A stretch of 64,000 nucleotides of DNA from Candidatus Gottesmanbacteria bacterium RIFCSPLOWO2_01_FULL_39_12b (GCA_001780955.1 MFJR01000007.1:75053-139052), one strand, 5' to 3'. Positions 27,246 to 49,904 are shown, counted from the first letter of the stretch. The notes: generated by a model from the letters alone, not told the origin. A program made the numbers and translations.

Positions 27246-28508
27246 TCAAATTTTCTTCACGATGAATCCTAGGATTACCTTTTTAATATACGTGATATGT
27301 TCGAAGCTTATTCCTGGAAAAACTCCGAGCCAAAAGGCTCCATTGAGAGCCACATCAGAATTTTCTACACTACCTGCTATTCTGTATTTGGTATGTTTAT
27401 ATGCAGGATGCCGAAGTAAATTACCAGAAAAAATTGTCCGAGTCCCAATTTTGTTTTCTTCTAGGTATTGAGTAAATTCATTTCGAGTAAATGGTGCGTT
27501 TTCTTTTACTATTGCCGGGAATCCAAACCAACAGGGATCTTCTTTCTCGGAAAGTTCCGGCAGGATAAAATATTTTTTGTACTGATCAAAAAACGCTCGC
27601 AGCTGAGCGTAATTTTCTTTCCGTTTTTTGATAAATTGGGGAAGTTTTTTTAGCTGTGCGACACCTATTGCGGCTTGAAAGTCGGTTAATTTCAGATTGT
27701 ACCCAATTTGGGTATACGTATACTTGTGATCGTACCCGAATGGGAGATCACCAAATTGCCAGCCGAAACGTTTTCTACATGTATTATCTTTTCCCGTATC
27801 ACACCAGCAATCTCTACCCCAATCTCGAAATTGCCTGATAGATCTATGAATAAGAGGATTATTGGTGATAACGGCTCCTCCTTCTCCCATCGTGATTTGA
27901 TGAGCAGGATAAAAGCTGTATGTTGCAATATCACCATACGTGCCGACAAGTTTTCCATTCCATCGGGAACCAAGAGCATCACAGCAATCCTCGATAACCC
28001 AGAGATTGTATTTCTTCGCAATTCGCGTTATCTGGGTAAGGTTGTACGGAATTCCCAGAGTATGAGCTACCATGATAAGTTTCGTCTTTTTCGTAATTGC
28101 TTTTTCAATTTTTCCAATATCGATATTGAATGTTTTAACATCGATATCAATAAAAACCGGTGTGAGTCCATATTGAATTCCGGGATTAACGGTCGTAGGG
28201 AAAGCAAGAGGTATGGCGATGTATTCATCACCACTTTTGAGGGCTCGATCCTTAAAAACGTTGGAGGTGAGAGAAGCTAGAGCGACAAGGTTGGCAGAAG
28301 AGCCAGAGTTGACTAGAGAAACGTATCTTATTCCCATAAAATTTCTGAAGTCCTTTTCAAACTGTTTCCCGAATTCTCCCTCTGTCCACCAGCCGTCACG
28401 GGCTACTTTTATAGCGTTGTTTATCTCTTCTTTGTCGAAAACTTTACCCGAAACGGGAATGTAGGTTCGACCTGGTATAAACGTTTTCTTCATTATTGAA
28501 ATCCCCAT
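27246..28508 (-). CDS. ddhC: CDP-4-dehydro-6-deoxyglucose 3-dehydrase (E1; RfbH/DdhC/AscC family, PMP- and [2Fe-2S]-dependent)
   Basis: 420 aa with near-collinear similarity to RfbH. SGSSANLVALASLTS, FPTTVNPGIQYGL, SFYPAHQITMGEGG (His replaces the PLP lysine), and cysteine cluster RDWGRDCWCDTGKDNTC (C-x-C-x7-C). Then YDHKYTYTQIGYNLKLTD. Confidence 0.85.
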   Translation of the reverse strand: MGISIMKKTFIPGRTYIPVSGKVFDKEEINNAIKVARDGWWTEGEFGKQFEKDFRNFMGIRYVSLVNSGSSANLVALASLTSNVFKDRALKSGDEYIAIPLAFPTTVNPGIQYGLTPVFIDIDVKTFNIDIGKIEKAITKKTKLIMVAHTLGIPYNLTQITRIAKKYNLWVIEDCCDALGSRWNGKLVGTYGDIATYSFYPAHQITMGEGGAVITNNPLIHRSIRQFRDWGRDCWCDTGKDNTCRKRFGWQFGDLPFGYDHKYTYTQIGYNLKLTDFQAAIGVAQLKKLPQFIKKRKENYAQLRAFFDQYKKYFILPELSEKEDPCWFGFPAIVKENAPFTRNEFTQYLEENKIGTRTIFSGNLLRHPAYKHTKYRIAGSVENSDVALNGAFWLGVFPGISFEHITYIKKVILGFIVKKI

Positions 28509-33115: not shown

Positions 33116-33128
33116 AAAACTTAAACCT

Positions 33129-35119: not shown

Positions 35120-35120
35120 T

Positions 35121-36041: not shown

Positions 36042-36043
36042 GT

Positions 36044-36057
36044 CTTGTAGCTACAAG
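36044..36057. other. Perfect 14-bp palindrome CTTGTAGCTACAAG (extends imperfectly to ~19 bp) immediately after the GtrB-like gene stop
   Basis: Read directly from sequence. Possible operator or weak terminator hairpin. No downstream T-tract. Confidence 0.2.
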
Positions 36058-36083
36058 GACAGAAACGACATAGATATACAGAA

Positions 36084-37208
36084 ATGAAACCATTCTCAAA
36101 ACCTATTTATATTACCCGGCCTCTGATGCCCCCGTTGCATAAATTTACCGCCAAACTACGGCAAATTTGGAAAAGTAAATGGCTATCAAATAACGGAATA
36201 CAGCTTCAAACGCTAGAGAAAAAAATTCAGAGAGTTCTAAAAGTTCCCCATATATCCTTATTTAATAACGGAACTATTGCACTGCTTACTGCTATTAAAA
36301 GTTTGAATCTCAAGGGAGAAGTTATTACAACACCTTTTACATTTCCGGCGACTCCTAACTGTCTTACTTGGTGCAATATTACACCTGTATTTTGTGATAT
36401 TGATTCCGTAACCATGAACATTGATCCTGCGAAAATAGAAAAAAATATAAATAAGAAAACTACCGGGATTTTGGCGGTTCACGTATTCGGATCACCATGT
36501 GATGTACCTACGATTCAGAAAATAGCTGAAAGAAATAGTTTAAAAGTTGTCTATGATGCCGCCCACGGCTTTGAAATCGAAATTAATAATATTGGAATCG
36601 GAAATTTTGGAGACATTTCAATGTTTAGTTTTCATCCGACAAAATTATTTCATACAGGAGAAGGTGGGGCACTTACCTGTAAGGACAAGATTCTTAAAAA
36701 GAAAATTGATTTACTGAGAAATTTTGGGATAAAAAATGAAGAGGAAGTTCTATTACCCGGGATAAACGGTAAGATGAACGAATTGATATCTGCGTTTGGA
36801 CATGTTCTTCTTCCGCTTGTTAAGGCTGAACAAAAGAGGCGAAAACGAATAAGCGAACTCTATAAACGCTATATAGATAATATACCTGGAGTTACCTATC
36901 AGAAAGATATACCCATGGTAAAAACTAATTATCAATATTTTGTAATCAGAATTAACAGTAGAATATTTGGGCGTTCGCGTAATGACGTATATAATATTTT
37001 TCGAACATATAACATATATGCAAGGAAGTATTTTTTTCCTCTTTGCAGCCAGTATCCATATTACAAGCATTTACCCTCTTCCAATCCGAAAAATTTACCA
37101 AACGCCCATAGGATAGCCGATGAAGTTCTAGCTCTGCCATTTTACGGACAGCTATCAATAAGTGAAGCGGAAAAAATTATTTCACTCTTAAAGTCATTAG
37201 GGAAATAG
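36084..37208 (+). CDS. DegT/DnrJ/EryC1/StrS-family PLP-dependent sugar aminotransferase
   Basis: 374 aa. LFNNGTIALLTAIKSL, DAAHGFE, and FSFHPTKLFHTGEGGAL (lysine retained). Confidence 0.85.
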   Translation: MKPFSKPIYITRPLMPPLHKFTAKLRQIWKSKWLSNNGIQLQTLEKKIQRVLKVPHISLFNNGTIALLTAIKSLNLKGEVITTPFTFPATPNCLTWCNITPVFCDIDSVTMNIDPAKIEKNINKKTTGILAVHVFGSPCDVPTIQKIAERNSLKVVYDAAHGFEIEINNIGIGNFGDISMFSFHPTKLFHTGEGGALTCKDKILKKKIDLLRNFGIKNEEEVLLPGINGKMNELISAFGHVLLPLVKAEQKRRKRISELYKRYIDNIPGVTYQKDIPMVKTNYQYFVIRINSRIFGRSRNDVYNIFRTYNIYARKYFFPLCSQYPYYKHLPSSNPKNLPNAHRIADEVLALPFYGQLSISEAEKIISLLKSLGK

Positions 37209-37988: not shown

Positions 37989-39875
37989 ATGAAGCATTTG
38001 TTTAAAAATTCGAAAAAATATTTTTTCGTTACATTTTTCTTATTCATTTTAAGCCTGCTGTGGATTTTTTATACATATAATGACAAATTTCAGTATCAAG
38101 TCATCAAGAATGTCACATATAACAATATTGATAGTCAAAAGGAGTATTCCGAAGCGGTTAGTTCAAACTATAAAGACGTTGATATCAGTTTTTCACTTTT
38201 CGTTGATTCGAAGGATAATATCGTTGATATCTTCCAAACGGGATCTTTAGGCACAGGTTTGATCATGAGATTTTCTCAACCAGGATTATTACAAATAATC
38301 ATCGGTTATGACAATCTTCTGGGAAATAAAGTTTATTCGCTCACTGATTCGTTTGAATACAATAAAGCGCATGCTATAAAAGTCATAGTTACCAAAGAAA
38401 AACATCTTTGGGTTGCATACGATGACATACTTGTTATCAACACATATGACAAAAATATAAACTTTGATGTCTCTAAATTCCGATTAGGACAGTTTTTCCA
38501 TGATGAAAAGATAACCAAGAGTACTATAAGTAATTTAAAATACACGTACACTCTGTTTCGTACAGTTCCAGCATACTCAATTGTTAAAAAAATAATGACT
38601 TTGATATTTTTTGTCTTAAGCTTCCAATTATTGAAAAAAAATATCAGAATTTTTTCACGCGAGGAGAGAATCAAATATACGGCATTTATACTGGTTGTTG
38701 GATTCTTGATGGCAGTTTTTTATCTCATAGGCCAAAGTATATTAGGATATACCTATCCGAAAAATACATTCCTTTTTAACCCGGGTAATATGTTTAGTGA
38801 TTTCATCGGCCCGGTAAATAATCCGGATATAATCACCTATTCATTTTTCATGGCGAGTATAAAACTTTTCTTTTATCATTTTGGTACTGAGATTAGCTTA
38901 GTGCTATTTCTTGTAGGATCGATTGCATTTCTGACACTTATAAATATCAAGGAAATTGCCGGCAAAAAATTTAACACGACTTCAATATTCTATGCTGCCG
39001 TTTTTTCATTACTTAGCTATCCTGTCCTTTTTGCTATAAATAGGGGCAATTTTGAACTATGGGTTTTTGTTTTATTGTATTTATTCTCCTATTACTTAAA
39101 TCAGAAAAGATTTATCAGAAGTGCAATATTCCTTTCCCTCGCAATATCACTGAAAATATTTCCCGCAGTTTTTCTCATAGTTATGCTATCTTGTAAGAAG
39201 TTTAAGGCCGCTATATATGCTTGTTTATTCACATTATGTACTACATTGATATCCTTAGCTGTATTTGCAAGTAGATCATCCCATAATGTAAGCAAATTAA
39301 TTTCTCAATACGTCAATACCTATACTATTGGATACGTAAAGGAATATGTTGTGGATAATAGAGGACTGGACTTTGGGCACAGTCTTTATGGACTTCTTAA
39401 ATTGCGTATTTTTAGTTTCTACAAAACGACTAACATTACCGACGTTACTCTCAAGAAAATTACAACCCTTCTCAATTCGTATACCCGGATTCAAATATCG
39501 CTTCTTGTCATACTTTCGGCGTATATTCTTTTCATAGAAAAAGAATTATGGAAAAAAATTACTCTCATGGTAATTGCGATGAATTTACTGCCTTTTGTGT
39601 CTGCCGATTATAAACTAATCAATTTCTTTATCCCTTTATATCTATTTATTAACAAAAAAGAAAAAAGCAGAATTGATTTTCTTTATATCATTCTCTTTTC
39701 TTTACTTTTAGTACCGAAAAATTACTACACAGTACTCTTGAATTTACCGGATACCAGTTTATCGGTTTTATTGAATCCTTTAATAATGATTATTCTGGCA
39801 CTGTTTATCTTATTTGAGGGATTCAAAAATATGTATGTTAGGAAGCGAAGTTCGTATGTCTCCTCCGTGATATAA
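37989..39875 (+). CDS. Polytopic membrane protein with an N-terminal ~170 aa extracytoplasmic domain after TM1. Putative GT-C-like glycosyltransferase
   Basis: 628 aa. One N-terminal TM, then a beta-rich soluble segment, then about 10 TM segments (GNFELWVFVLLY, LAISLKIFPAVFLIV). Confidence 0.45.
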   Translation: MKHLFKNSKKYFFVTFFLFILSLLWIFYTYNDKFQYQVIKNVTYNNIDSQKEYSEAVSSNYKDVDISFSLFVDSKDNIVDIFQTGSLGTGLIMRFSQPGLLQIIIGYDNLLGNKVYSLTDSFEYNKAHAIKVIVTKEKHLWVAYDDILVINTYDKNINFDVSKFRLGQFFHDEKITKSTISNLKYTYTLFRTVPAYSIVKKIMTLIFFVLSFQLLKKNIRIFSREERIKYTAFILVVGFLMAVFYLIGQSILGYTYPKNTFLFNPGNMFSDFIGPVNNPDIITYSFFMASIKLFFYHFGTEISLVLFLVGSIAFLTLINIKEIAGKKFNTTSIFYAAVFSLLSYPVLFAINRGNFELWVFVLLYLFSYYLNQKRFIRSAIFLSLAISLKIFPAVFLIVMLSCKKFKAAIYACLFTLCTTLISLAVFASRSSHNVSKLISQYVNTYTIGYVKEYVVDNRGLDFGHSLYGLLKLRIFSFYKTTNITDVTLKKITTLLNSYTRIQISLLVILSAYILFIEKELWKKITLMVIAMNLLPFVSADYKLINFFIPLYLFINKKEKSRIDFLYIILFSLLLVPKNYYTVLLNLPDTSLSVLLNPLIMIILALFILFEGFKNMYVRKRSSYVSSVI

Positions 39876-39877: not shown

Positions 39878-41713
39878 ATGCAATTTACTATGCAGCAGAA
39901 ACTGTCTGATTTTGTCGTCCAGTTTATTGAAGAATTAGGAGTAAAGCATATTTTCCTTGTATCAGGTGGGGGGAATATTCATCTGATTGATTCAGTTGGA
40001 AAGAGTAAAAAATTTGACTACGTTTGTAATCATCACGAGCAAGCCTCAGCTACCTCAGCTGAAAGCTATGCTAGAGTTACAGGAAATATAGGTGTATGTT
40101 TGACTACAACCGGTCCGGGAGGAACGAATGCCATAACAGGTGTTCTTGGTGCCTGGCAAGACTCAATTCCTATTTTGGTTATTTCCGGTCAAGTAAAAAG
40201 AGAACTTCTTTCCTGGAAAGTTGATAAAAATCTGCGGCAGCTGGGAGACCAGGAAGTGAATATCGTTGAGATGGTGAAATCTATCACAAAATACAGCGTT
40301 ACGGTAATGGAGGCTTCGGATATTCGTTATCATTTGGAAAAAGCGGTTTACTTGGCAAGAAGTGGCAGACCCGGTCCGGTTTGGCTGGATATACCTCTTG
40401 ATATCCAGGGATCATTTATAGACCCAGCGAGTTTGCGAGGATTTGGTCCAAAAGAATTAACTCCTTCTTATCAGACGAACAAACAAAAAATTAAGGAATT
40501 AGTAAAAGTTGTAGTTCAAAGACTAGAAAAAGCAGAAAGACCCGTTCTTTATGCAGGTCATGGTATCCGGTTAAGCGGGGCGGAAAAGGAATTTTTGGAA
40601 TTTGTAAACAAGTTAAAAATTCCGGTGCTTTTAAGCTATGCAGGCTATGATTTACTTCCAAATGAGCATCCGTATTATTTTGGCAGAGCTCATGCTTTTG
40701 GACAACGAGCGGCAAATTTTATTATCCAAAATAGCGATTTATTAATCTCAGTTGGAGCCCGTTTTGATGTTCGAACCATAGGATTTACTTACAAAGCGTT
40801 TGCGAGGGCCGCGTATAAAGTAATGGTGGATATAGATAGGGGAGAACTTGAGAAACCCATTCTATCGCCTGACTTTCCCATTAACTGTGACGCAAAAGAG
40901 TTTATCTTGGAGATGATAAACCAACTTAAACAAAAACCGTTCAAAAAAAATATTTCAGACTGGCTAAATTATGGTAGAAGTTTAAACAAAAAATATCCAG
41001 TTGTTTTACCCCAATATTGGCAGGAAAGGAAGTATGTGAATCCTTACTGTTTCATAGAAACAATAGGCAAATATCTGAAACCGGATGAGATCATTGTATT
41101 ATCGGATGGTGTAGGACCTTTAAATTGTATGTATCAAGCTTTTGTAGTAAAAAAGGGGCAGAGAATAATTTTGAATAACGGGTGTGCTCAGATGGGGTAT
41201 GGTTTACCTGCGGCAGTAGGGGCGGCTTTTGCAGCCGGTAAAAAGAAGCGAATAGTTTGTTTTGAAGGTGATGGGAGTCTGCAGTTAAATATCCACGAAC
41301 TTCAAGTGATGAAACATCATAACCTTTCCATAAAACTTTTCATTTATAGCAATGATGGTTATCTCTCAATCCGCAATACGCAAAATAATCTTTTTGAGAA
41401 GAGACATGTTGCGGTTGATTCACACAGTGGTGTAAGTTCTCCTGATTTTGTGAAAGTAGCCAAAGCTTACGGTTTTCCTGCAGAACGCATATACAATCAT
41501 AAGGATATGGAAGAAAAAATCCAGAAAGTATTAAATTTTCCAGGACCCATAGTTTGTGATATAAATGCAGTGCGTGAGCTTATGCTCAGGCCTAAACTCA
41601 TGGCCAAAAAACTTCCAAACGGACAATTTGTATCGCCTCCTCTTGAAGATATGGGTCCGTTTCTGCCCCGAGACGAATTTAAACAAAATATGCTTATACC
41701 TATATGGGAATAA
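39878..41713 (+). CDS. Thiamine-diphosphate-dependent acetolactate-synthase-like enzyme (YerE-like candidate sugar C-branching enzyme rather than IlvB)
   Basis: 611 aa. N-terminal Pyr domain GGGNIHLIDSVGKS...CLTTTGPGGTNAITGVLGAWQDSIPILVISGQV. C-terminal PP domain GDGSLQLNIHELQ. No small-subunit gene nearby. Embedded in the sugar locus. Confidence 0.75.
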   Translation: MQFTMQQKLSDFVVQFIEELGVKHIFLVSGGGNIHLIDSVGKSKKFDYVCNHHEQASATSAESYARVTGNIGVCLTTTGPGGTNAITGVLGAWQDSIPILVISGQVKRELLSWKVDKNLRQLGDQEVNIVEMVKSITKYSVTVMEASDIRYHLEKAVYLARSGRPGPVWLDIPLDIQGSFIDPASLRGFGPKELTPSYQTNKQKIKELVKVVVQRLEKAERPVLYAGHGIRLSGAEKEFLEFVNKLKIPVLLSYAGYDLLPNEHPYYFGRAHAFGQRAANFIIQNSDLLISVGARFDVRTIGFTYKAFARAAYKVMVDIDRGELEKPILSPDFPINCDAKEFILEMINQLKQKPFKKNISDWLNYGRSLNKKYPVVLPQYWQERKYVNPYCFIETIGKYLKPDEIIVLSDGVGPLNCMYQAFVVKKGQRIILNNGCAQMGYGLPAAVGAAFAAGKKKRIVCFEGDGSLQLNIHELQVMKHHNLSIKLFIYSNDGYLSIRNTQNNLFEKRHVAVDSHSGVSSPDFVKVAKAYGFPAERIYNHKDMEEKIQKVLNFPGPIVCDINAVRELMLRPKLMAKKLPNGQFVSPPLEDMGPFLPRDEFKQNMLIPIWE

Positions 41714-42630
41714 TTAAAAGGAAAAACATTTTTATTACCGGCGGGTCAGGATTTATTGGCAGAAATTTACAGGAATATTTACATTCAAAATACACAATTT
41801 TTGCTCCATCTCATGTTGAACTTGATCTTCTGGATACAAAAAAAGTTGAACGCTTCATCCAGAATAACAATATTCAGATTATCATCCATGGGGCAAATAT
41901 TGGTGGAGGAAGGGATACGATAGATCAAAGAGATGTAGTTCAAACAAATTTGACGATTTTTTTTAATATCGTACGAAATCTTGATAGCCTTGAAAAAGTA
42001 ATTCATCTAGGGTCTGGAGCTGAATACGACAAGAGCAGGCCACTTATAGATGTGAAAGAAGGGGATTTTGATAAACAGATACCTCAGGATGATTATGGAT
42101 TTTATAAATATGTTTGTTCAAAGTATATCGACAAAACGGATAAAATCATATCTCTGAGGTTGTTTGCAGTATACGGTAAATATGAAAATTATCTCTTTAA
42201 GTTCATCTCAAATGCAATTCTCAAGAATTTATTTCACTTACCAATTATTATTAGCCAAAACGTATATTTTGACTATTTGTATATTGAAGATCTTATAAAA
42301 ATTATTGATTATTTCATAAACCATACTGCAAAACATAATGCATATAATATTTCAAGCGGAAAAAGAATTGATCTTCTTACGATTTCAGAAACTATTAATA
42401 ATATAAGCAATTTCAAATCAAAAATTATTCTTCTCAATAAAGGGTTAAATCACGAATATAGTGCAGATAATCATAGATTAACTAAAGAAATAACTGGTTT
42501 AAGTTTTACTTCTATAGAAGAGGGAATTAGAAAACTGTATGATTGGTATAAAAGTAATTTATTCAAAATAAATAGAAATGAAATAAAACAAGATCGTTAT
42601 ATTAAGTATATAAATGTGAAAAGGGATTAA
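41704..42630 (+). CDS. NAD(P)-dependent extended-SDR sugar epimerase/reductase (YerF / RfbJ / RfbS-like candidate)
   Basis: IFITGGSGFIGRNLQEYL glycine-rich N-terminus and a YxxxK region (YKYVCSKY). 308 aa. Overlaps the ThDP enzyme by 10 bp. Confidence 0.65.
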   Translation: MGIIKRKNIFITGGSGFIGRNLQEYLHSKYTIFAPSHVELDLLDTKKVERFIQNNNIQIIIHGANIGGGRDTIDQRDVVQTNLTIFFNIVRNLDSLEKVIHLGSGAEYDKSRPLIDVKEGDFDKQIPQDDYGFYKYVCSKYIDKTDKIISLRLFAVYGKYENYLFKFISNAILKNLFHLPIIISQNVYFDYLYIEDLIKIIDYFINHTAKHNAYNISSGKRIDLLTISETINNISNFKSKIILLNKGLNHEYSADNHRLTKEITGLSFTSIEEGIRKLYDWYKSNLFKINRNEIKQDRYIKYINVKRD

Positions 42631-42637: not shown

Positions 42638-43609
42638 ATGGTTAATAAAAGTTTGTCGGTGGTCGTACCTTGCTTTAATGAGGCAAAGAATATCCTCGAG
42701 ATGTACCGAAGGTTAAAAGAGGTATTAAGGAAAAATATTTCGGGTTACGAAATAATTTTTGTAGATAACGGAAGCACCGATCAATCTAGTAAAATATTTC
42801 AATCTATTGTAAAAAAGGATCCACATGTGGGAGTTTTAGTATATTCGCGTAATTTTGGTGCTCATGGAGCTTACACAGGAGGATTGGATTACGTAAAAGG
42901 AGAAGCTGTTGTTTTTATAGACGGTGATCAGCAAGATCCACCTGAGCTTATTGAAGAAATGATTATCAAGTGGCAGGAGGGTTATGATATTGTATATGGA
43001 ATAAGAAAAAGAAGAAAAGGAAATGTTTTAAGAAAATTATTTACAATATTCTTTTATAGAATTCTTAATAAACTCTCTTATGTAAAAATACCTCTGGACG
43101 CGGGTGATTTCTCATTAATGGATCGAAAAGTAGTTGAACTTATTAAAAATATGCCCGAACATAATAAATACTTTACAGGACTTAGAGCGTGGGTTGGGTT
43201 CAGACAAATAGGCATTGAGTATAGTAGAGCAAAAAGAAATGCAGGGGTAACGAAATTCAGTTTTATTGACTATATTAAGTGGGCTCTGCATAGCATTTCA
43301 TCTTTTTCATATAAGCCTCTTGAACTAATTTCTTATCTTGCTACTTTGGTGTTTCTTGTATCCTTTTTTGGAATTTTTGTCTATATTTTAGATTTTTTCT
43401 TTTATCCTAATAATCCTCGGGGTTTCATCACGCTTATTTTGGTTACCTTATTTCTTGGTGGTGTACAGCTATTGTGTCTTAGTATTATTGGGCAATATTT
43501 GGCAAATATATTCGAAGAAGTTAAAAATAGACCTAAGTATATTGTTAAAGAATCTTTTGGAAAGACGCTTCTTTTCAAAAAGAGCGTTCATGGTCAGGAA
43601 TATTCTTAG
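42638..43609 (+). CDS. Polyprenol-phosphate glycosyltransferase, GT2 with C-terminal TM helices (GtrB/ArnC-like), copy 2
   Basis: LSVVVPCFNEAKNI...IIFVDNGSTDQS...SRNFGAHGAYTGGL...DGDQQDP and a C-terminal two-helix anchor. Confidence 0.8.
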   Translation: MVNKSLSVVVPCFNEAKNILEMYRRLKEVLRKNISGYEIIFVDNGSTDQSSKIFQSIVKKDPHVGVLVYSRNFGAHGAYTGGLDYVKGEAVVFIDGDQQDPPELIEEMIIKWQEGYDIVYGIRKRRKGNVLRKLFTIFFYRILNKLSYVKIPLDAGDFSLMDRKVVELIKNMPEHNKYFTGLRAWVGFRQIGIEYSRAKRNAGVTKFSFIDYIKWALHSISSFSYKPLELISYLATLVFLVSFFGIFVYILDFFFYPNNPRGFITLILVTLFLGGVQLLCLSIIGQYLANIFEEVKNRPKYIVKESFGKTLLFKKSVHGQEYS

Positions 43610-43664: not shown

Positions 43665-44654
43665 ATGGATAAAAAATTTTGGAAAAAAAGAAATGTTTTT
43701 ATAACTGGAAGCACTGGTTTACTGGGTTTCTGGATAGCAAAATATTTATCGGATTATAAGGCAAACATAATTGCTTTAATTCACAACGATATTCCTCAAC
43801 CATTTATTAAAACCTTTTCTCGCATTACTGTGGTGAAAGGTGAGGTGACAGATTATAAAAAAATTCTTTCTTTACTAAACAAACATAATATAGAAATTGT
43901 TTTTCCGCTTGCAGCACAGACCATTTCTCCAGTTGCTAATACAAATCCAATTCATACTTTTGAAACTAATATAAAAGGAGCATGGATTACTTTAGAAGCT
44001 TGCAGAAACTCAAAGACAGTCAAAAGAATTATTTTTCCTTCAACCGATAAGGTATACGGTGAAGAAGAACGTCTTCCTTATACTGAAAATTCCAGGTTAA
44101 CTGCAAAGAGGCCATATACAGTTTCCAAAAGCTGTGCTGATCTTATAGCACAGGCTTATCATGCAAGTTATAATTTGCCTATTTGCATAACACGGTTTGG
44201 CAATTTTTTTGGAGGAGGAGACTTACGTTTTGACAGGCTTGTTCCATCCGTTATTTATTCAGCATTATATAATAAACCACTTGTCGTACGAAGCGATGGG
44301 AAATATATGAGAGATTTTATATATGTAGAAGATGCAGCAAGAGCTTGTATTGAATTAACAGAAGTAATGGATAGCCTAAAAATCCTTGGAAACGCCTTCA
44401 ATTTTAGTTACGAAAAACCGTTTGAGGTTTTAGAGCTCGTTGAACTGATTCTAAAAAAAATGGAATCTCCTGTTAAACCGAGAGTATTGGGACTTACATT
44501 AAATGAGGTAAGAGATCAATATCTATCTTCCAAAAAATCAAGAACACTGCTTGGCTGGAAACCTTCTTTTACTGTTGAACAAGGAATAGAACGGACAATT
44601 AAATGGTATAGAGATTATTTTAAACATATACGCCAGGATAACGACTCAATATGA
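43665..44654 (+). CDS. CDP-glucose 4,6-dehydratase-like (RfbG/DdhB family) NDP-sugar dehydratase
   Basis: N-terminal FWKKRNVFITGSTGLLGFWIAKYL (RfbG FW.GKRVFVTGHTGFKGSWL), PLAAQTISPVANTNPIHTFETNIKG, STDKVYGE, YTVSKSCADL (RfbG SKGCAEL). Confidence 0.65.
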   Translation: MDKKFWKKRNVFITGSTGLLGFWIAKYLSDYKANIIALIHNDIPQPFIKTFSRITVVKGEVTDYKKILSLLNKHNIEIVFPLAAQTISPVANTNPIHTFETNIKGAWITLEACRNSKTVKRIIFPSTDKVYGEEERLPYTENSRLTAKRPYTVSKSCADLIAQAYHASYNLPICITRFGNFFGGGDLRFDRLVPSVIYSALYNKPLVVRSDGKYMRDFIYVEDAARACIELTEVMDSLKILGNAFNFSYEKPFEVLELVELILKKMESPVKPRVLGLTLNEVRDQYLSSKKSRTLLGWKPSFTVEQGIERTIKWYRDYFKHIRQDNDSI

Positions 44655-45319
44655 ATAAGAAAACAGTACTTATAACCGGAACTTCACGTGGAATAGGATT
44701 TGCAATTAGAAAAATTCTTGAAAAGGAAAAATACGTTATTGTTGCTCCTAATCGACAGGAATTAAATTTAGCAGATAAGCATTCTGTTGAATACTTTATT
44801 CATAAAAATAGAAATTTAAATATTGATATCCTGATCAATAACGCAGGTATTAACAATCCTGAGTGGATCCAAAATCTGGACGATAAAAATATTGAAGAAT
44901 CTATGGAGGTAAATTTAATTTCCCCTATCAAGTTGATAAAAGCATTTGTTGGGCATATGATACAAAATAAATGGGGACGGATTGTAAATATAAGTTCTAT
45001 ATTTGGTGTTGTTGCCCGGGGAAAACAAGTCATGTATGCCGCTACAAAACATGGCCTGAATGGAGTTACAAAAGCTCTTGCGTTGGAACTAGGACCGTAT
45101 AATATTCTTGTGAATTCGGTCTGTCCCGGTTTTACCAATACTGATTTGGTGAAGAGAAACTCAAAAGAAAAAAATGCAGAAATAGCTTGCGATATTCCTC
45201 TTGGTCGTTTTGCAGAGCCAGAAGAAATTGCAGAATGTGTTCTTTTCCTTATTTCAGAAAAAAATACTTACATGAACGGAGCCAATATCATGATTGACGG
45301 CGGTTTTACCTGCAGATAG
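44651..45319 (+). CDS. Classical short-chain dehydrogenase/reductase (FabG-like)
   Basis: VLITGTSRGIGFAI, NNAGI, catalytic YAATKHGLNG. Confidence 0.8.
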   Translation: MNKKTVLITGTSRGIGFAIRKILEKEKYVIVAPNRQELNLADKHSVEYFIHKNRNLNIDILINNAGINNPEWIQNLDDKNIEESMEVNLISPIKLIKAFVGHMIQNKWGRIVNISSIFGVVARGKQVMYAATKHGLNGVTKALALELGPYNILVNSVCPGFTNTDLVKRNSKEKNAEIACDIPLGRFAEPEEIAECVLFLISEKNTYMNGANIMIDGGFTCR

Positions 45320-45321: not shown

Positions 45322-46419
45322 TTGTCTATGGATGAATTAGTCATCAAATCAAAAATAAAGGATTTTAAAGTTAAATTCGTTGATAATACAAATTTCCTTA
45401 AGGAAATGTTTACTATTCCTCATTATGTCGTTTTCGTAGGATCAATAGTCCACGAGTTTTACAAAGAAAAAATATTCGATCGGTTTCCCAACGAAAAAAT
45501 GATCGTTATGAAGCTTGATGAGGAAAAAAAGACAATCGATACTGCCATTAAACTTTATAAAAAGCTGATGACTAAACAAGGAAAGAAAAACCTGACCATG
45601 ATCTCTTTCGGCGGCGGCATAAATCAGGATATTGCTGGATTTGTTGCTTCCACTCTTTATCGGGGTATAAATTGGATTTATGTACCTACTACGCTTCTTG
45701 CTATGGCAGACAGTTCGATAGGATTGAAAACCTCCCTCAACTTTGGCTCAATTAAAAACATGATCGGTTCGTTTTATCCCCCGACTGAAGTTTATATCGA
45801 TATAAATTTCCTAAAAACGCTAAAAAGGCAAGATTATGCCAGTGGAGTCGGAGAGATAATGAAGCTTCTTCTGATGAAAGAAGATTCATCTAAGAACTTG
45901 GCTAAAATAGTGGAAAAAGTAGAAATATTAGACTGCCAAGAAGATAAAAAAAGGATGATAGAGATCATCAAAGAAGCCATGCAGATAAAATTAAGCTATA
46001 TGGAAGGTGATGAATTTGATAAAGGGAGAAGAAATTTGCTCAATTACGGGCATGAATTCGGGCATGCGCTTGAGCCAGCCTCCGATTATCAGGTCCCACA
46101 TGGGATTGCTATAGTAATTGGTATGATTTTTGCAAACTATATTTCAGTAAAAAGAAAATGGATGAGGAGTAAACTATTTGACTACCTGAATGAGAATATA
46201 TTTATTCCGTATATGAGAAGGAGTATGATAAAATTGAAAAAAGATTTTTTTAAACCGAGTACGCTTTTAGCGAATATGAAAAAGGATAAAAAAAGAGAGT
46301 CAAGCGATCTTGTACTCATTTTGCCCAAAGAAAATTTGAATTTGTGTAAAGTCCAAGATTTAACGATACAAGAATTTGAAACAGGGCTTAGAGAAGTGCA
46401 AAAAATATTAATATTTTAA
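45322..46419 (+). CDS. 3-dehydroquinate-synthase-like sugar-phosphate cyclase family protein
   Basis: GGGINQDIAGFVASTLYRGINWIYVPTTLLAMADSSIGLKTSLNF...KNMIGSFYPPTEVYID...NYGHEFGHALE...VPHGIAIVIGM: collinear DHQS motifs. Confidence 0.7.
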   Translation: MSMDELVIKSKIKDFKVKFVDNTNFLKEMFTIPHYVVFVGSIVHEFYKEKIFDRFPNEKMIVMKLDEEKKTIDTAIKLYKKLMTKQGKKNLTMISFGGGINQDIAGFVASTLYRGINWIYVPTTLLAMADSSIGLKTSLNFGSIKNMIGSFYPPTEVYIDINFLKTLKRQDYASGVGEIMKLLLMKEDSSKNLAKIVEKVEILDCQEDKKRMIEIIKEAMQIKLSYMEGDEFDKGRRNLLNYGHEFGHALEPASDYQVPHGIAIVIGMIFANYISVKRKWMRSKLFDYLNENIFIPYMRRSMIKLKKDFFKPSTLLANMKKDKKRESSDLVLILPKENLNLCKVQDLTIQEFETGLREVQKILIF

Positions 46420-46436: not shown

Positions 46437-47231
46437 ATGAACGATTTAGAGAATAAAATGGTTGAATCGTTGATTAACTTAAGAGATAAACATGGGGTAA
46501 TAGAGGTTAAGGCAGAGTTTGAAGCAGAAGCTTCCCGCATGAATGAACTCATGCGGTTAAAAGAGGTAGCGGATAAAGCAGGCTTAGGTTTAGTATTAAA
46601 AGTAGGAGGAGCTGAAGCGATTACCGATATGTTTGAAGCACAGCATATCGGAGTGACGGGACTTATTGCTCCCATGATTGAAAGTGCTTATGCCATGAAA
46701 AAATATCTTGAAGCAATAGGGAAATATTTTCCGCAGGATCTTAGGAAGACTATTCATTTTGGAGTTAATATAGAGACGTATCAGGCGTATAAAAATCTTG
46801 AAGAAATGCTTAATTTGCAAAAGATACACTTTATTGACACAATAACCTTGGGAAGAGTAGACATGTGTGGCTCTCTCAATATCTCAAGAATGGATATTAA
46901 CTGCGACCAAATTTTTGATATTGCTCTTGATATATTTACCAAAGCAAAGAAAAAAGGCATGCGGACAACTATGGGAGGAGGAATAGCCAAAGAAGCAATT
47001 CCGTTTATAAAGAAATTAGCTTCAAAAAAACTTTTGGATAGATACGAAACAAGGAAAATTGTGTTTCCTGTTGCAAAAAGTTTAACAAATATCAAAGAAG
47101 GGATCATTGCCGCAAATTCTTTTGAACTTCTTTGGCTGGAAAATAAAAAAAATTACTATTCCCTTATTTCTACCGAGGATGATTTAAGAATAGTAATGTT
47201 GAATAGCAGAATACCCCAAAAACAGGCATGA
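46437..47231 (+). CDS. HpcH/HpaI-aldolase / CitE-like TIM-barrel protein (tentative)
   Basis: GVTGLIAPMIESAYAMKK and DTITLGRVDMCGSLNI resemble the PMVE...and GxxDL motifs of HpcH/CitE aldolases. Weak. Confidence 0.4.
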   Translation: MNDLENKMVESLINLRDKHGVIEVKAEFEAEASRMNELMRLKEVADKAGLGLVLKVGGAEAITDMFEAQHIGVTGLIAPMIESAYAMKKYLEAIGKYFPQDLRKTIHFGVNIETYQAYKNLEEMLNLQKIHFIDTITLGRVDMCGSLNISRMDINCDQIFDIALDIFTKAKKKGMRTTMGGGIAKEAIPFIKKLASKKLLDRYETRKIVFPVAKSLTNIKEGIIAANSFELLWLENKKNYYSLISTEDDLRIVMLNSRIPQKQA

Positions 47232-48205
47232 AAAAAATAGTTTCAGTTGTTATTCCAACCTATAACGAAGAGGAAAACATAGAATACGCGTATGGTGAAA
47301 TAAAGAAAATATTTCGTTTGTTACCGAAGTATGATTACGAAATTGTCTTTGTAGACAATTATAGTACTGATTATTCAAGAAAGATAATAAAAGAAATAGC
47401 AAAAAAAGACGGTAAAGTAACAGCACTTTTCATGTCAAGAAATTTTACCTCTGAATATTCCTCTCAAGCAGCAATGAAACAGGCAATAGGAGATGCGATA
47501 ACGGTTGTAGACTGTGATTTGCAGGATCCCCCAGAAGTAATCCCGCGGTTCATTGCTGAATGGGAAAAAGGATATCAGGTAATTATAGGAGTAAGAAACA
47601 AAATCAATGATACGTTTTTGATGAGCAAAGTTAGAAGACTATTTTATGTTTTTTTTAAAAAACTAGCCAATATCGATATGCCTCTAAATGCCGGAAGTTT
47701 TTGCCTTTTGGATCGAAAAGTGATGGATGTTATAAATAGTCTTCCAGAGAGAAATCGTTTCTTTCGAGGACTCCGAGCTTGGGTCGGGTTCCGAGTATCC
47801 AAAGTGTATTATGAGAGAAAAGCTCGTCACTTGGGTGAAAGTAAGAATAAATTTTCCGATTACATCAATGATTCAGAGAGAGGGTTGTTGGGATTTTCAT
47901 TTATTCCTTTGGATGTTATGACATCTTTGGGGCTTTTATTAGTATGTGCGTCATTTGTTTTTATAGTAGGATATTTGTTTATGGTCTTTGTCTATGGGAA
48001 TCCAGTAAATGCGTCTATTCCGATTTTAATCGCTATCGTCTTTTTTGGAGGTGTGCAAACGCTTGCTATCAGTATCGTTGGGAAATATATTCAAATTATT
48101 TTTGAAGAAGTGAAAGGGAGACCTACGTATATAATCGATGAGGTTATTAACGATCATCGTCAGAGTTTAACCTATAAGACTCCAAAATTGCTGTACCAAT
48201 CGTAG
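47228..48205 (+). CDS. Polyprenol-phosphate glycosyltransferase, GT2 with C-terminal TM helices (GtrB/ArnC-like), copy 3
   Basis: VSVVIPTYNEEENI...IVFVDNYSTDYS...SRNFTSEYSSQAAM...DCDLQDP and a C-terminal membrane anchor. Confidence 0.8.
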   Translation: MKKIVSVVIPTYNEEENIEYAYGEIKKIFRLLPKYDYEIVFVDNYSTDYSRKIIKEIAKKDGKVTALFMSRNFTSEYSSQAAMKQAIGDAITVVDCDLQDPPEVIPRFIAEWEKGYQVIIGVRNKINDTFLMSKVRRLFYVFFKKLANIDMPLNAGSFCLLDRKVMDVINSLPERNRFFRGLRAWVGFRVSKVYYERKARHLGESKNKFSDYINDSERGLLGFSFIPLDVMTSLGLLLVCASFVFIVGYLFMVFVYGNPVNASIPILIAIVFFGGVQTLAISIVGKYIQIIFEEVKGRPTYIIDEVINDHRQSLTYKTPKLLYQS

Positions 48206-49164
48206 ATCTGTTTTATAATACCGCATAATGTGAATTTCGGCTTCCAACCTAATTTTTTCTCTATCTTTGCATAGTCAAGAGATTGAAAAGGAATTTCATT
48301 CCGAGCAGTATTTAATATCTTATAGTCGATTTTTTTCTGTAGGGTTTTCTCAATAAGTGTTATTAAATTTAGAACCGATAAATTCTCACTTGACCCGAAA
48401 TTGAACGCTTCTCCTTTTACTTTCCCAATATTTTTAGCAAGTAGTAGATAGCCATGTATCACATCTTTTACATAAATATAATCTCGGATATAAGTGCCAT
48501 CACTCCGTATCTTAAGAGATTCTTTGGTTGCAAGAGATTTCATAATGCCCGGAATAACGCGGGAAAAATTCAGATCTCCTTCGCCGTAAACGTTTCCAAA
48601 GCGTGTTACCACAACTGGAAGTCCGTAGGTCTTGAAGTAAGAATAGCTGATAAGGTCAGCAGCAGATTTAGATACTTCGTAAGGGTGATCACCCCGTAGT
48701 GGAGTATCTTCAACATATTTCTTTTCCGTTTTTCCATAAGCTTTATCGGAAGAAGCGACTATAATACCTTTTACCTTTGGAAAAAGGCGAGCACTTTCTA
48801 ATACATTTGTAGTACCGAGAATATTTGTTTCAAGAGTTCTTTTCGGGTTAGCATAGGCTATATCGACAAGCGGTTGGGCAGCAAGATGGAAAATCAGGTC
48901 GATGTCAAACTTAGTTACTAGATCAAACACGCTCTCAAAATTACAGATGTCTATATATACCAACGTCGTTTGTTCATCCAAGTTTCGGGAATAAAAATAA
49001 GAGTGAGGATTTCTAGTCTGATAAGTACTTATTACGTGGGCTTTTTGTCTTATCAATTCCTCAATCAGGTGAGACCCGATAAATCCTGTTCCACCTGTGA
49101 CTAATATGTTTTTGTCGGTAAAGTTTATTTCCATATTTTCCAGGGCGCGTTTCCTTTTTTCCAA
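48172..49164 (-). CDS. RfbG-like NDP-sugar 4,6-dehydratase (extended SDR). Likely the CDP-glucose 4,6-dehydratase partner of the adjacent cytidylyltransferase
   Basis: ILVTGGTGFIGSHL, HLAAQPLVDIAYANPKRTLETNILGT, SSDKAYG, YEVSKSAADL. Directly downstream of ddhA in the same operon. Confidence 0.7.
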   Translation of the reverse strand: MEKRKRALENMEINFTDKNILVTGGTGFIGSHLIEELIRQKAHVISTYQTRNPHSYFYSRNLDEQTTLVYIDICNFESVFDLVTKFDIDLIFHLAAQPLVDIAYANPKRTLETNILGTTNVLESARLFPKVKGIIVASSDKAYGKTEKKYVEDTPLRGDHPYEVSKSAADLISYSYFKTYGLPVVVTRFGNVYGEGDLNFSRVIPGIMKSLATKESLKIRSDGTYIRDYIYVKDVIHGYLLLAKNIGKVKGEAFNFGSSENLSVLNLITLIEKTLQKKIDYKILNTARNEIPFQSLDYAKIEKKLGWKPKFTLCGIIKQIYDWYSNFGVL

Positions 49165-49904
49165 ATATTATTTAATTCTTCATACTCTTTATTAGTATCG
49201 ACTGCAAACCAAAACCCTTCATGTTTATATAGGGATAACTGATTTATGTTCGCTAATCTTTTTAAAGCTGCATGTTCCAACTCTCCTGGTTTCTGATAAT
49301 CGAAATATCTTTTATCAAACATCATAAATCCTCCATTAACCCAGTCTTTAAGAACTGGTTTTTCGGAAAATTGAGTGACAAGATTGTCGTTATTTGTTTT
49401 AACCGCACCGAATTTAAATTTGGGATGAATACCGGTTATGGTTCCAATAGTTTTCTGTTGGTAGTGAAATTTTACTAGCTCTCCTATATTCACATTTGCT
49501 ACTCCATCACCATAGGTAACCATAAACGACTTATCAGTTTCTGGTAGGTATTTTTGGCACCTGAGTATGCGTTCTCCAGGAAGTGTTTCCAATCCCGTGT
49601 CTACAAAAGTTATCTTGAAGTTATCACGTTTTTCAAAATCATTTAAATAATATTTTGCCTTATGATTTATAGTATTGAGGGTGAAATCAGAGGTAAATGC
49701 TTTTTGATTCAGAAAAAAATCCTTAATGTAGTTAGCTTTATATCCCAAGGCTAAGATAAATTCATTATATCCATAACTGGCATATATCTTCATGATATGC
49801 CATACAATCGGTTGATCACCGATATAAACCATCGGTTTAGGTTTGAATTCCGTTTCTTCTTTCAGCCTGGTACCGATGCCCCCGCAAAGAATTATTGTTT
49901 TCAC
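49125..49904 (-). CDS. ddhA: Glucose-1-phosphate cytidylyltransferase (RfbF/DdhA)
   Basis: MKTIILCGGIGTRLKEETEFKPKPMVYIGDQPIVWHIMKIYASYGYNEFILALGYKANYIKDFF is near-collinear with RfbF (MKAVILAGGLGTRLSEET..KPKPMVEIGGKPILWHIMK.Y). Confidence 0.85.
   Translation of the reverse strand: MKTIILCGGIGTRLKEETEFKPKPMVYIGDQPIVWHIMKIYASYGYNEFILALGYKANYIKDFFLNQKAFTSDFTLNTINHKAKYYLNDFEKRDNFKITFVDTGLETLPGERILRCQKYLPETDKSFMVTYGDGVANVNIGELVKFHYQQKTIGTITGIHPKFKFGAVKTNNDNLVTQFSEKPVLKDWVNGGFMMFDKRYFDYQKPGELEHAALKRLANINQLSLYKHEGFWFAVDTNKEYEELNNIWKKGNAPWKIWK

Follow-up and report, generated by a model that had tools for sequence, protein, structure and literature searches.

In the 64-kb stretch of a Gottesmanbacteria (CPR) genome analyzed here (the window), two overlapping genes, one for a predicted ThDP-dependent carboligase and one for an extended SDR, are probably central to a pathway for branching a nucleotide sugar, which would build a 4-C-branched 3,6-dideoxyhexose from a donor longer than pyruvate. 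This kind of pathway is already known, while the version in the window is uncharacterized and its operon is widespread. We read the ThDP enzyme as a sugar-branching carboligase and not as an acetohydroxyacid synthase (AHAS) because of its nearest characterized relative, its phylogeny, and its gene neighborhood. The overall reading of the original prediction for this DNA is largely supported, with corrections. The genes concerned are listed below by window coordinates; given their long ORFs and strong domain scores, chance is not a concern.

27246..28508, minus strand: E1 (DdhC/RfbH), PMP- and [2Fe-2S]-dependent CDP-6-deoxy-4-hexulose 3-dehydrase (NF011936, motifs, identity to DdhC)
37989..39875, plus strand: GT87-like multi-pass membrane glycosyltransferase of GT-C type (PF09594 1.6e-12; ~5 or more TM segments)
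39878..41713, plus strand: predicted ThDP-dependent carboligase, 611 aa, ATG start (TPP domains, JanthE-clade placement, gene context)
41704..42630, plus strand: extended-SDR NAD(P)-dependent reductase, 308 aa, ATG start (PF01370, GxxGxxG, YxxxK)
42638..43609, plus strand: second GtrB-like GT2 (31% to the Yersinia GT2; two C-terminal hydrophobic helices)
43665..44654, plus strand: second CDP-glucose-4,6-dehydratase-like SDR (TIGR02622 182 bits, cut-off 278; 28% to Yersinia DdhB)
44651..45319, plus strand: FabG-like classical SDR (adh_short_C2 2.7e-45)
45322..46419, plus strand: AroB-related sugar-phosphate phospholyase-like protein, DHQS-like (TIGR04425 377 bits, cut-off 400; TIGR01357 261 bits, cut-off 305)
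46437..47231, plus strand: divergent HpcH/HpaI-family (aldolase/citrate-lyase family) class II pyruvate aldolase-like protein (PF03328, AF2 fold)
47228..48205, plus strand: GtrB-like GT2 of the polyprenyl-phosphate glycosyltransferase type (GT2 match; two C-terminal hydrophobic helices)
48172..49164, minus strand: CDP-glucose 4,6-dehydratase-like SDR, ddhB-like (TIGR02622 205 bits, cut-off 278; 29% to Yersinia DdhB)
49125..49904, minus strand: glucose-1-phosphate cytidylyltransferase, ddhA-like (TIGR02623 265 bits, cut-off 300; 40% to Yersinia DdhA)

The ThDP enzyme and its relatives

A ThDP enzyme of 611 aa with Pyr and PP domains had been proposed, and the ORF at 39878..41713 bears this out: a domain search finds TPP_enzyme_N (PF02776, 1.1e-33), TPP_enzyme_M (PF00205, 2.4e-33), and TPP_enzyme_C (PF02775, 8.9e-33), giving Pyr, middle (TH3/FAD-type), and PP domains in a single chain and answering the accompanying question of whether a middle domain is present. 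In the translation, the catalytic Glu (Glu54) lies in ‘NHHEQ’, ‘EGDGS...YSNDGY’ matches the canonical ThDP/Mg motif GDG-X25-ND, and the middle domain carries the AHAS-like ‘RFDVR’; across the clade, Glu54 of ‘HHEQ’ is invariant in the alignment. With three domains, the catalytic Glu, and GDG-X(24-27)-N, the protein belongs to the ThDP-dependent decarboxylase (AHAS-like) superfamily and shares its architecture and motifs with AHAS (IlvB/IlvI/IlvG).

A conventional acetolactate synthase, anabolic or catabolic, located in a sugar locus by chance, would explain the conserved three domains, the resemblance of RFDVR to the AHAS RFDDR, and the annotations, since the top NCBIfam names for the enzyme are all ‘acetolactate synthase large subunit’ and the JGI label for its homologues is the same. 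This explanation is effectively refuted by several lines of evidence. The enzyme scores 387 bits against TIGR00118 (anabolic AHAS; cut-off 538) and falls below every AHAS equivalog cut-off, far below in the case of all PRK AHAS models. Among solved structures the closest is JanthE (8rph) at 480 bits, against 268 bits for the best AHAS. None of the window's ORFs of 100 aa or more has an IlvH, IlvC, or IlvD domain, and a tblastn search of the window with E. coli IlvH returned no match, in agreement with the originally noted lack of ilvH/ilvC/ilvD context; unlike AHAS, then, the enzyme has neither a regulatory subunit nor ilv genes in the window. A phylogeny had been suggested as a check. In our neighbor-joining tree (592 columns, 300 bootstraps), where AHAS was sampled by only two E. 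coli sequences (IlvB and IlvI) and YpYerE, ErwE, and MMAR_2332 were left out, 298/300 bootstraps recover the JanthE clade, to which the window protein belongs, as monophyletic, and 0/300 group it with the two AHAS sequences. The canonical Yersinia/Pseudomonas YerE clade is its sister, with E. coli IlvB/IlvI/Gcl outside, in 300/300. Members of the clade are moreover embedded in ddh operons across phyla. We therefore reject an anabolic AHAS identity on the grounds of the sub-cut-off score, the separate clade, the lack of ilv context, and the far closer JanthE.

The enzyme is likewise not YerE sensu stricto, an identity rejected on its 33% identity to Y. bercovieri YerE (241 bits) and its sister-clade position; PpYerE (5ahk) scores 266 bits, about the same as AHAS. 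Of the proposed parallel with YerE, a sugar-branching, YerE-like carboligase thus stands and membership in the canonical YerE clade does not. The closest characterized protein is JanthE from Janthinobacterium sp. HH01 (8rph/8rpi/8rpj), which is ~39-40% identical and aligns end to end with the window enzyme, including a C-terminal ‘PKL...SPPLED’ extension. JanthE is a ketone-accepting YerE-like lyase that uses donors from pyruvate through 4-hydroxy-2-oxovalerate and whose physiological substrates are unreported (PMC12188165, 2025), and enzymes of its type take many cyclic ketones (PMC12247030). Its engineering hotspot Lys567 is kept as K573 in the window enzyme, whereas V121, Y268, P293, and Y297 are replaced by D, F, R, and F, respectively; the window enzyme also has the canonical GDG where JanthE has CDG, and the AHAS-like RFDVR where JanthE has RLAIP. 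By its closest characterized relative and its supported clade, the window enzyme is of the ketone-accepting ‘YerE-like’ type at the level of sequence, and we predict YerE-like function for it within the JanthE clade of the AHAS-like decarboxylase superfamily. The predicted reaction is the decarboxylative addition of a 2-oxoacid onto the C4 ketone of CDP-3,6-dideoxy-4-hexulose.

The predicted acceptor sugar and the adjacent reductase

The claim that E1, ddhA, and ddhB-like genes lie in the same island is upheld, with ddhB-like genes in two copies. The E1 assignment is strong: the protein scores 628 bits against NF011936 RfbH (cut-off 423) and shares 51% identity with Yersinia bercovieri DdhC. 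In an alignment with DdhC and an aminotransferase, His replaces the PLP lysine (‘YPAHQ’ vs. the aminotransferase ‘HPTKL’), and the C-x-C-x7-C Fe-S insertion is present. A DegT gene at 36084-37208 was also considered as E1 and rejected as an ordinary Lys-containing aminotransferase. The ddhB-like gene at 48172..49164 is co-transcribed with ddhA; the second one, at 43665..44654, has a counterpart in only ~9/51 related loci.

A scan of species-representative genomes confirmed 535 candidate loci, of which 80 were kept as related loci; neighborhood counts refer to the 51 related loci that span 15 kb or more and come from many phyla, with core genes counted within 10 kb of the ThDP gene. E1 is found near the ThDP gene in 43 of these loci, often directly adjoining it, followed by ddhB-like genes in 39, ddhA in 37, GT2 in 29, and SDR in 27. 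The frequencies of E1, ddhB-like genes, and ddhA point to CDP-3,6-dideoxy-4-hexulose as the acceptor.

The original prediction spoke of E1/E3 products, which cannot be maintained in that wording: E3 (DdhD) is found neither in the 64-kb window nor in any of the 80 related loci. E1 would have to receive its electrons without an E3 encoded in the window, so that deoxygenation of the acceptor at C3 is a prediction. The missing E3 is consistent with a different ketone being branched, either CDP-4-keto-6-deoxyglucose, which is not 3-deoxygenated, or a carbocyclic ketone that the DHQS-like enzyme would produce, in which case the product would be no 3,6-dideoxyhexose derivative. The many cyclic ketones taken by JanthE-type enzymes, the conserved DHQS-like partner, and the two ddhB-like paralogues in the window also fit this explanation. 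We nonetheless regard it as very improbable, as a bona fide Fe-S E1 in 43/51 loci is hard to explain if the E1 product goes unused. E1-type dehydrases such as SpnQ, in addition, are able to use general ferredoxin/flavodoxin reductases.

The SDR gene at 41704..42630 overlaps the ThDP gene by 10 bp, both ORFs being as originally described. Its 308-aa product matches PF01370 (1.7e-25) and carries the motifs ‘TGGSGFIG’ and ‘YGFYK’ (YxxxK), and its best solved relatives are dTDP-4-dehydrorhamnose reductases (RmlD-type 4-ketoreductases). Yersinia YerF is only 24% identical across just 140 aa (E = 2e-7), for which reason we reject orthology and consider the window SDR a functional analogue. The comparison with YerF thus holds for the likely role, predicted reduction of the C1' ketone of the branch, and fails for descent. 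Orthologs of the window SDR occur in 39/80 related loci, directly adjoining the ThDP gene in 20/80, and Yersinia-type YerF is found in only 3/80.

The Yersinia yersiniose A cluster has the order ddhD-ddhA-ddhB-ddhC-yerE-yerF. Common to it and the window are ddhA/ddhB/E1, a ThDP enzyme with three domains whose gene is overlapped by that of an extended SDR (~310 aa) immediately after it, and a GT2 of GtrB-like type. Unlike the Yersinia cluster, the window lacks E3/ddhD, has E1 and ThDP genes that lie 11 kb apart on opposite strands, and contains additional aldolase, DHQS-like, and FabG-like genes.

Putative donor genes and the probable length of the branch

These additional genes bear on the side chain. 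The HpcH-like protein scores 28 bits against PF03328 (cut-off 25) and is very divergent, with 12-16% identity to known aldolases; the NCBI label of its homologues is ‘aldolase/citrate lyase family’. Its AF2 model (pLDDT 93.7) has HpcH/HpaI/YfaU aldolases as top PDB folds (TM ~0.6), and this predicted structure confirms the TIM-barrel fold of HpcH/HpaI class II aldolases. The metal-site motifs are invariant in the alignment, with E113 in ‘NIET’ and D142 in ‘GRVDM’, which would correspond to HpaI E149/D175; in our reading of the alignment, a Lys occupies the position of the catalytic Arg of HpaI. The protein may make a 4-hydroxy-2-oxoacid donor. The DHQS-like protein has DHQS enzymes as its PDB relatives, at no more than 148 bits, and a true 3-dehydroquinate synthase (AroB) was rejected since its TIGR01357 score is below cut-off and TIGR04425 is nearer. 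The FabG-like SDR may work with it in preparing the donor side chain.

These genes form a recurring module. In the window and in 15/51 related loci from several phyla, an HpcH-like, a FabG-like, and a DHQS-like gene make up one contiguous stretch with those for the ThDP enzyme and the SDR. Counted singly, the HpcH-like gene occurs in 24/51 loci, the FabG-like gene in 20/51, nearly always beside the DHQS-like gene, and the DHQS-like gene in 19/51, where its partner is of HpcH type or of NeuB type. Three non-homologous enzymes alternate beside ThDP genes of the JanthE clade, namely HpcH-type, NeuB-type, and DmpG/DmpF-type. All three are types that form 4-hydroxy-2-oxoacids or 3-deoxy-2-ulosonates. 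A DmpG/DmpF-type pair adjoins a JanthE homologue of 75% identity, mirroring the erwiniose cluster (PMC9306805), and this homologue sits in a ddhA-ddhB-E1 sugar locus comparable to the context of the window enzyme.

A ‘unifying scheme’ for sugars with longer acyl branches has been proposed from the erwiniose, caryophyllose, and gastriose clusters (Steitz et al. 2022, PMC9306805), with ErwE/F/I/J as the erwiniose genes and MMAR_2331/2332 as those for caryophyllose. In M. marinum, caryophyllose synthesis requires an ‘aldolase/citrate lyase family’ gene adjoining the ThDP gene, and MMAR_2331 is described as belonging to this family, which is that of the window HpcH-like protein (PMC9306805). All the parts of this scheme lie within 27246-49904: deoxy-keto-sugar genes, a ThDP carboligase, a reductase, a pyruvate aldolase, and a glycosyltransferase. 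The likeness of ErwE, MMAR_2332, and MyGE to the window system is one of description, not sequence, and the window aldolase is of HpcH type where that for erwiniose is of BphI/DmpG type. Neither the DHQS-like enzyme nor the FabG-like SDR is mentioned in the Müller-group papers PMC9306805 and PMC12247030, and ‘dehydroquinate’ is absent from the text of PMC12247030.

The conserved HpcH/FabG-like/DHQS-like partners, as in the erwiniose and caryophyllose clusters, suggest a longer 4-hydroxy-2-oxoacid donor in place of pyruvate, so that the branch probably exceeds two carbons. Given these partners, their DmpG/DmpF or NeuB alternatives, and the long, aldolase-made donors for erwiniose and caryophyllose, the ‘two-carbon-branched’ sugar first proposed is the least likely detail of that account. 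With pyruvate as donor, an acetyl group would be added to the E1 product and reduced by the SDR to yersiniose or a stereoisomer, a 4-C-(1-hydroxyethyl)-3,6-dideoxyhexose, and the aldolase, DHQS-like, and FabG-like genes would serve another sugar. This is unlikely in our judgment, yet several observations favor it: the Yersinia cluster has the same overlapping ThDP-then-SDR adjacency, 9/51 loci have no donor module, and minimal loci of the same clade (L022, L064, L084) contain only ddhA-ddhB-E1-(SDR)-ThDP. JanthE also accepts pyruvate (PMC12188165), so a C2 branch is possible for the window enzyme; ErwE rejects pyruvate. Arguing for the longer donor, the module keeps its contiguity with the ThDP and SDR genes across phyla as well as in the window, other 2-oxoacid-forming enzymes substitute for it in further loci of the clade, and the window enzyme lies in the sister clade of the acetyl-transferring YerE, outside it.

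Proposed pathway and its distribution

The chemical steps, each of which we infer, would proceed as follows. By family assignment, ddhA and the ddhB-like dehydratase would produce CDP-4-keto-6-deoxy-D-glucose, from which E1, identified above, would remove the 3-OH to give CDP-4-keto-3,6-dideoxy-D-glucose. Judging from JanthE and the conserved gene context, the ThDP enzyme would decarboxylate a 2-oxoacid and transfer the resulting acyl anion to the ketone at C4, which would become a tertiary alcohol, and the overlapping SDR would reduce the C1' ketone of the branch to a 1-hydroxyalkyl group. The donor is more likely a 4-hydroxy-2-oxoacid, which the HpcH-type aldolase would build from pyruvate and an aldehyde; the aldehyde is perhaps supplied or tailored by the DHQS-like phospholyase, a speculative step, and the FabG-like reductase. 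A GtrB-like GT2 would load the sugar on polyprenyl phosphate, and a GT-C enzyme would transfer it outside the membrane. The product would be a 4-C-(1-hydroxyalkyl)-3,6-dideoxyhexose of the erwiniose/caryophyllose type on the Gottesmanbacteria cell surface. A CPR host presumably has no outer membrane, and the glycan would then not be LPS. We count against this pathway the lack of E3 in the window and the 80 related loci, the distant, opposite-strand E1, the non-orthologous SDR, the divergent HpcH-like protein, and the loci without a donor module.

The likely transferase for the branched sugar is the GT2 at 47228..48205, which has 33% full-length identity to the GT2 that neighbors yerF-gtrA in Y. 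bercovieri and a counterpart in 29/51 related loci. The GT87-like protein, whose gene stops 3 bp upstream of the ThDP gene and has homologues in 5 related loci, is a candidate extracytoplasmic transferase.

More tentatively, the products of the conserved operon ddhA-ddhB-E1-SDR-ThDP-HpcH-FabG-DHQS-GT2 may be surface sugars of a family not yet described, a possibility we hold to be on the doubtful side. The operon would have two features without precedent among branched-sugar pathways. The first is that a DHQS-like NAD-dependent phospholyase would help to build the side chain of a branched sugar, by omega-deoxygenating a sugar phosphate for the aldehyde of the aldolase or by closing a carbocycle; the second is that E1 would be recharged without a dedicated E3. 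The clade would, in that case, define the physiological role of JanthE-type enzymes. Named carriers of the operon are the window, Nitrospirae, Nitrosospira, Sulfuriferula, Elusimicrobia, Bacteroidota, and several CPR lineages; Sulfuriferula multivorans and Campylobacter concisus are carriers in culture.

Such sugars had been called rare, which for the genes does not hold: beside the 535 candidate loci, the ThDP clade comprises >150 clusters at 50% identity, and the 80 kept loci include many CPR lineages. Nitrospirae, WOR-1, Elusimicrobia, and others share the full gene order. Sulfuriferula has a near-identical one, as does Nitrosospira, where the SDR is a different one, and one Bacteroidota locus has the same module.

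Identity of the ThDP enzyme and its SDR partner

The two genes under study lie on the same strand and overlap by 10 bp, as originally predicted:

39878-41713, + strand, ThDP enzyme (611 aa)
41704-42630, + strand, extended SDR (308 aa)

The larger product contains the predicted Pyr and PP domains, with three ThDP-enzyme domains each matching at ~1e-33; the middle domain, for which a check had been proposed, is present. Its catalytic Glu lies within an HHEQ motif, and its cofactor motif, GDG-X25-ND, is canonical. The SDR carries GxxGxxG and YxxxK motifs, and among solved structures it is closest to RmlD-type nucleotide-sugar 4-ketoreductases.

The best NCBIfam names for the ThDP protein are all "acetolactate synthase", each scoring below its own cut-off (for TIGR00118, 387 bits against 538). 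Among solved structures the top match is 8rph (480 bits, E = 7e-143, full-length alignment), with all AHAS structures at or below 268 bits and 5ahk, which we take to be the structure of P. protegens YerE (PpYerE), at only 266 bits. The 8rph structure was identified in a 2025 paper as JanthE, a "YerE-like" lyase from Janthinobacterium that joins 2-oxoacids (pyruvate up to 4-hydroxy-2-oxovalerate) to ketones, and whose physiological substrates are stated there as unknown (PMC12188165). PpYerE has Yersinia homologues at 68% identity, one of them encoded within the textbook cluster ddhD-ddhA-ddhB-ddhC-yerE-yerF-gtrA-GT2, which anchors the canonical YerE clade; Y. bercovieri YerE shares 33% identity with the window enzyme. 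A neighbor-joining tree was built from 38 sequences (592 columns, PoxB outgroup, 300 bootstraps), which the Yersinia YerE clade entered indirectly via PpYerE homologues and from which YpYerE, ErwE and MMAR_2332 were left out. The JanthE clade, including the window protein, was monophyletic in 298/300 bootstraps and the YerE clade in 300/300; with AHAS thinly sampled, the two clades were sisters to the exclusion of E. coli IlvB, IlvI and Gcl in 300/300. This outcome of the proposed phylogenetic test favors the sugar-branching reading.

Assignment as an AHAS is ruled out by the family cut-offs, the tree and the gene context: as had been claimed, ilvH, ilvC and ilvD occur in none of the window's ORFs of at least 100 aa, all of which were annotated, and E. 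coli IlvH as a query matched nothing anywhere in the window. Phosphonopyruvate and sulfopyruvate decarboxylases, families without a middle domain, are rejected by the presence of that domain in the ThDP protein, and neither appears among the best 25 NCBIfam matches or the PDB matches listed. The proposed parallel with Yersinia YerE and YerF stands at the level of pathway class and fails at the level of orthology, with the ThDP enzyme in the sister JanthE clade and the SDR, on direct comparison, only remotely kin to YerF. In predicted function and architecture, the window pathway is within the known class of ThDP-dependent, acyl-branched 3,6-dideoxyhexose pathways.

The E1-linked neighborhood and the predicted acceptor

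The E1, ddhA and ddhB-like genes that had been placed in the same island are indeed there, the latter two just downstream:

27246-28508, - strand, E1 (628 bits on the RfbH/DdhC model, cut-off 423; 51% identity to Yersinia bercovieri DdhC)
48172-49164, - strand, ddhB-like dehydratase
49125-49904, - strand, ddhA-like cytidylyltransferase
43665-44654, second ddhB-like gene

The true E1 gene, 27246-28508, encodes both hallmarks of the enzyme, a His replacing the PLP lysine and a CxCx7C iron-sulfur insertion. The DegT-family gene at 36084-37208 was rejected as E1, being that of an ordinary aminotransferase in which the PLP lysine is kept and the Fe-S insertion is missing. The E3 sought beside E1 was of the DdhD/AscD type (Fer2, FAD_binding_6 and NAD_binding_1), adjacent in the Yersinia cluster. 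Y. bercovieri DdhD found no match in the window or in any of 80 related loci. Ferredoxins were not among the common small ORF families near the ThDP gene, which proved to be GtrA or antisense shadows.

The ThDP family is large: among representatives of 50%-identity clusters, the best 150 each reach at least 411 bits. Scanning species-representative genomes yielded 535 confirmed candidate loci, of which 80, at 44-72% identity, were kept; their hosts include CPR lineages, Nitrospirae, Nitrosospira, Sulfuriferula, Campylobacter concisus, Vallitalea, Planctomycetes, Verrucomicrobia and Bacteroidota, among others. ORFs were called in these related loci and each assigned to its best-matching window gene; the counts below are for the 51 loci of 15 kb or more.

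Genes near the ThDP gene in 51 related loci
E1: 43
ddhB-like: 39
ddhA: 37
GT2 of the 47228 type: 29
Extended SDR of the 41704 type: 27
HpcH-like: 24
FabG-like: 20
DHQS-like: 19

The recurrent operon order is ddhA-ddhB-E1-SDR-ThDP-HpcH-FabG-DHQS-GT2, and the module of the window is also present in one Bacteroidota locus. Linkage to the rare, specialized E1 gene is the strongest evidence that the predicted acceptor of the ThDP enzyme is the E1 product, CDP-4-keto-3,6-dideoxyglucose. As surface sugars, branched 3,6-dideoxyhexoses are strongly antigenic, and they are known from only a few Gram-negatives and mycobacteria. The sugar had been called rare; the genetic capacity for it is instead widespread, ultrasmall CPR bacteria included, which live attached to hosts and whose surface glycans are essentially unstudied.

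Operon variants occur in cultured species, namely Campylobacter concisus Lasto28.99 (L051; ddhA-ddhB-ThDP-HAD-HpcH-SDR-E1-GT2), Sulfuriferula multivorans TTN (L024) and Vallitalea maricola (L063), so the predicted sugar is open to experimental search and could be isolated from these organisms. Long members of the ThDP clade are natural fusions (P0128, P0135, P0151, P0178, P0197, P0145, P0223, P0236), comprising N-terminal cupin-ThDP (~850 aa), ThDP-HAD phosphatase, ThDP-methyltransferase and ThDP-radical SAM/SPASM proteins. The HAD fusion is a hint that donors or products may be phosphorylated. No aldolase-ThDP (Rosetta-stone) fusion was found among the long family members.

Predicted donor supply and length of the branch

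In the "unifying scheme" for erwiniose, caryophyllose and gastriose, the YerE-like enzyme takes an aldolase-made 4-hydroxy-2-oxoacid rather than pyruvate; genes for aldolase and dehydrogenase of the BphI/BphJ type are part of the erwiniose cluster, and in M. marinum the "aldolase/citrate lyase family" gene MMAR_2331, beside the ThDP gene, is required (PMC9306805). Downstream of the SDR, the window encodes:

44651-45319, + strand, FabG-like protein
45322-46419, + strand, DHQS-like protein
46437-47231, + strand, HpcH-like protein

The HpcH-like product belongs to the same family as MMAR_2331. It scores weakly above the Pfam gathering score for PF03328, its homologues are named "citrate lyase beta subunit" or "aldolase/citrate lyase family protein" by NCBI, and its presumed metal ligands are conserved. 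The best PDB folds for its AlphaFold model (pLDDT 93.7) are class II pyruvate aldolases of the HpcH/HpaI/YfaU type.

Donor-module genes in the 51 loci
HpcH + FabG + DHQS: 15
NeuB-like alone, frequently alongside HAD and FkbM genes: 13
HpcH alone (plus HAD in Campylobacter concisus): 9
FabG + DHQS + NeuB: 4
FabG only: 1
No gene of these types: 9

Counted separately, DmpG-like genes occur in 4 and DmpF-like genes in 3 of the 80 loci. Three unrelated enzyme types (HpcH, NeuB and DmpG) thus alternate at the same position beside the ThDP gene, and each joins pyruvate or PEP to an aldehyde, yielding a 4-hydroxy-2-oxoacid. This alternation argues that the donors of the ThDP clade are 4-hydroxy-2-oxoacids, and the branch in the window's variant, originally predicted to have two carbons, is therefore probably longer. 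A CDG-motif homologue 75% identical to JanthE lies in a further locus (L092, 3132-18119) with the order ddhA-ddhB-E1 ... ThDP-DmpF-like-DmpG-like-SDR-SDR-x-GtrA-GT2. This locus mirrors the erwiniose cluster and offers a hint of what JanthE-type enzymes do physiologically.

The DHQS-like and FabG-like genes occur as a pair whether their partner is HpcH-type or NeuB-type, and in one related locus the DHQS-like gene accompanies an FGGY kinase and a HAD phosphatase. The two proteins may prepare the donor aldehyde, possibly through oxidation-assisted elimination of phosphate followed by ketoreduction to an omega-deoxy aldose; a role in carbocycle formation is a possible alternative. In the literature searched, no DHQS-like enzyme was tied to branched-sugar synthesis.

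Unlike described branched-sugar clusters, that of the window has no E3, includes the DHQS-like and FabG-like pair and belongs to a CPR bacterium of Candidatus Gottesmanbacteria; in the literature searched, no report tied CPR bacteria to branched sugars of this type. A 2024 bioinformatic survey by Krug et al. may already list clusters of the window's type. The missing E3 and the DHQS-like partner are two testable oddities of the pathway. Neighborhood analysis supplies a physiological setting for the JanthE clade, whose ThDP lyases are useful in biocatalysis: a CDP-3,6-dideoxy-4-hexulose would be the acceptor and aldolase- or synthase-made 2-oxoacids the donors. The widespread DHQS-containing, E3-less operon may produce sugars of a family not described before and define what JanthE-type enzymes do in nature.

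Glycosyl transfer, export and other sugar genes

GtrB-like GT2 paralogues, each with two C-terminal hydrophobic helices as in GtrB, are encoded at:

35103-36041, + strand
42638-43609, + strand
47228-48205, + strand

The last shares 33% identity, end to end, with the GT2 beside Yersinia yerF-gtrA. GtrA-like genes recur among the related loci, with none in the window, and a gene for a GT87-like multi-pass protein stops 3 bp before the ThDP gene. A Gtr-type route, in which the CDP-sugar is converted to a polyprenyl-phosphate-sugar and then transferred extracytoplasmically by a GT-C enzyme, is a reasonable inference. Three GtrB-like GT2s together with many GT-C-like membrane proteins suggest polyprenyl-phosphate monosaccharides as the delivery form of several sugars.

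A tandem run of seven paralogous multi-pass membrane proteins (9699-24625, - strand; 603-752 aa) looks like an expanded set of GT-C-type glycosyltransferases. They form two subfamilies, b1-b4 and b5-b7, with 30-46% identity within each, and only one member has a weak YfhO match. The + strand at 28576-37208 encodes a WbqC-like protein, two tandem GH32/GH130-like beta-propeller proteins, a GNAT protein, a 3-hydroxyacyl-CoA dehydrogenase, a small ORF, a thiolase-like protein (PRK06289, 569 bits), a methyltransferase, a GtrB-like GT2 and a DesI/PseC-like aminotransferase, a gene set suggestive of an independent pathway for a 4-amino-6-deoxy sugar with an N-acyl group, possibly 3-hydroxybutyryl. 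A split-gene transketolase, with N and C halves in separate ORFs (55170-55958 and 55966-56877, + strand), is followed by an extended SDR (56884-57843, + strand) and adjoined by a methyltransferase (54236-55126, - strand); such TKn/TKc pairs also occur near the YerE-like gene in two related loci (L057 and L086). Split transketolases have been proposed, unproven and so far in Streptomyces only, as keto-sugar branchers (PMC12247030), and this one may give the locus a second ThDP-type system for branching. An ABC-2 permease and ATPase pair (5679-7215, + strand; Wzm/Wzt-like), amid GT2 and GT4 genes, indicates ABC-transporter-dependent polysaccharide export in the same island.
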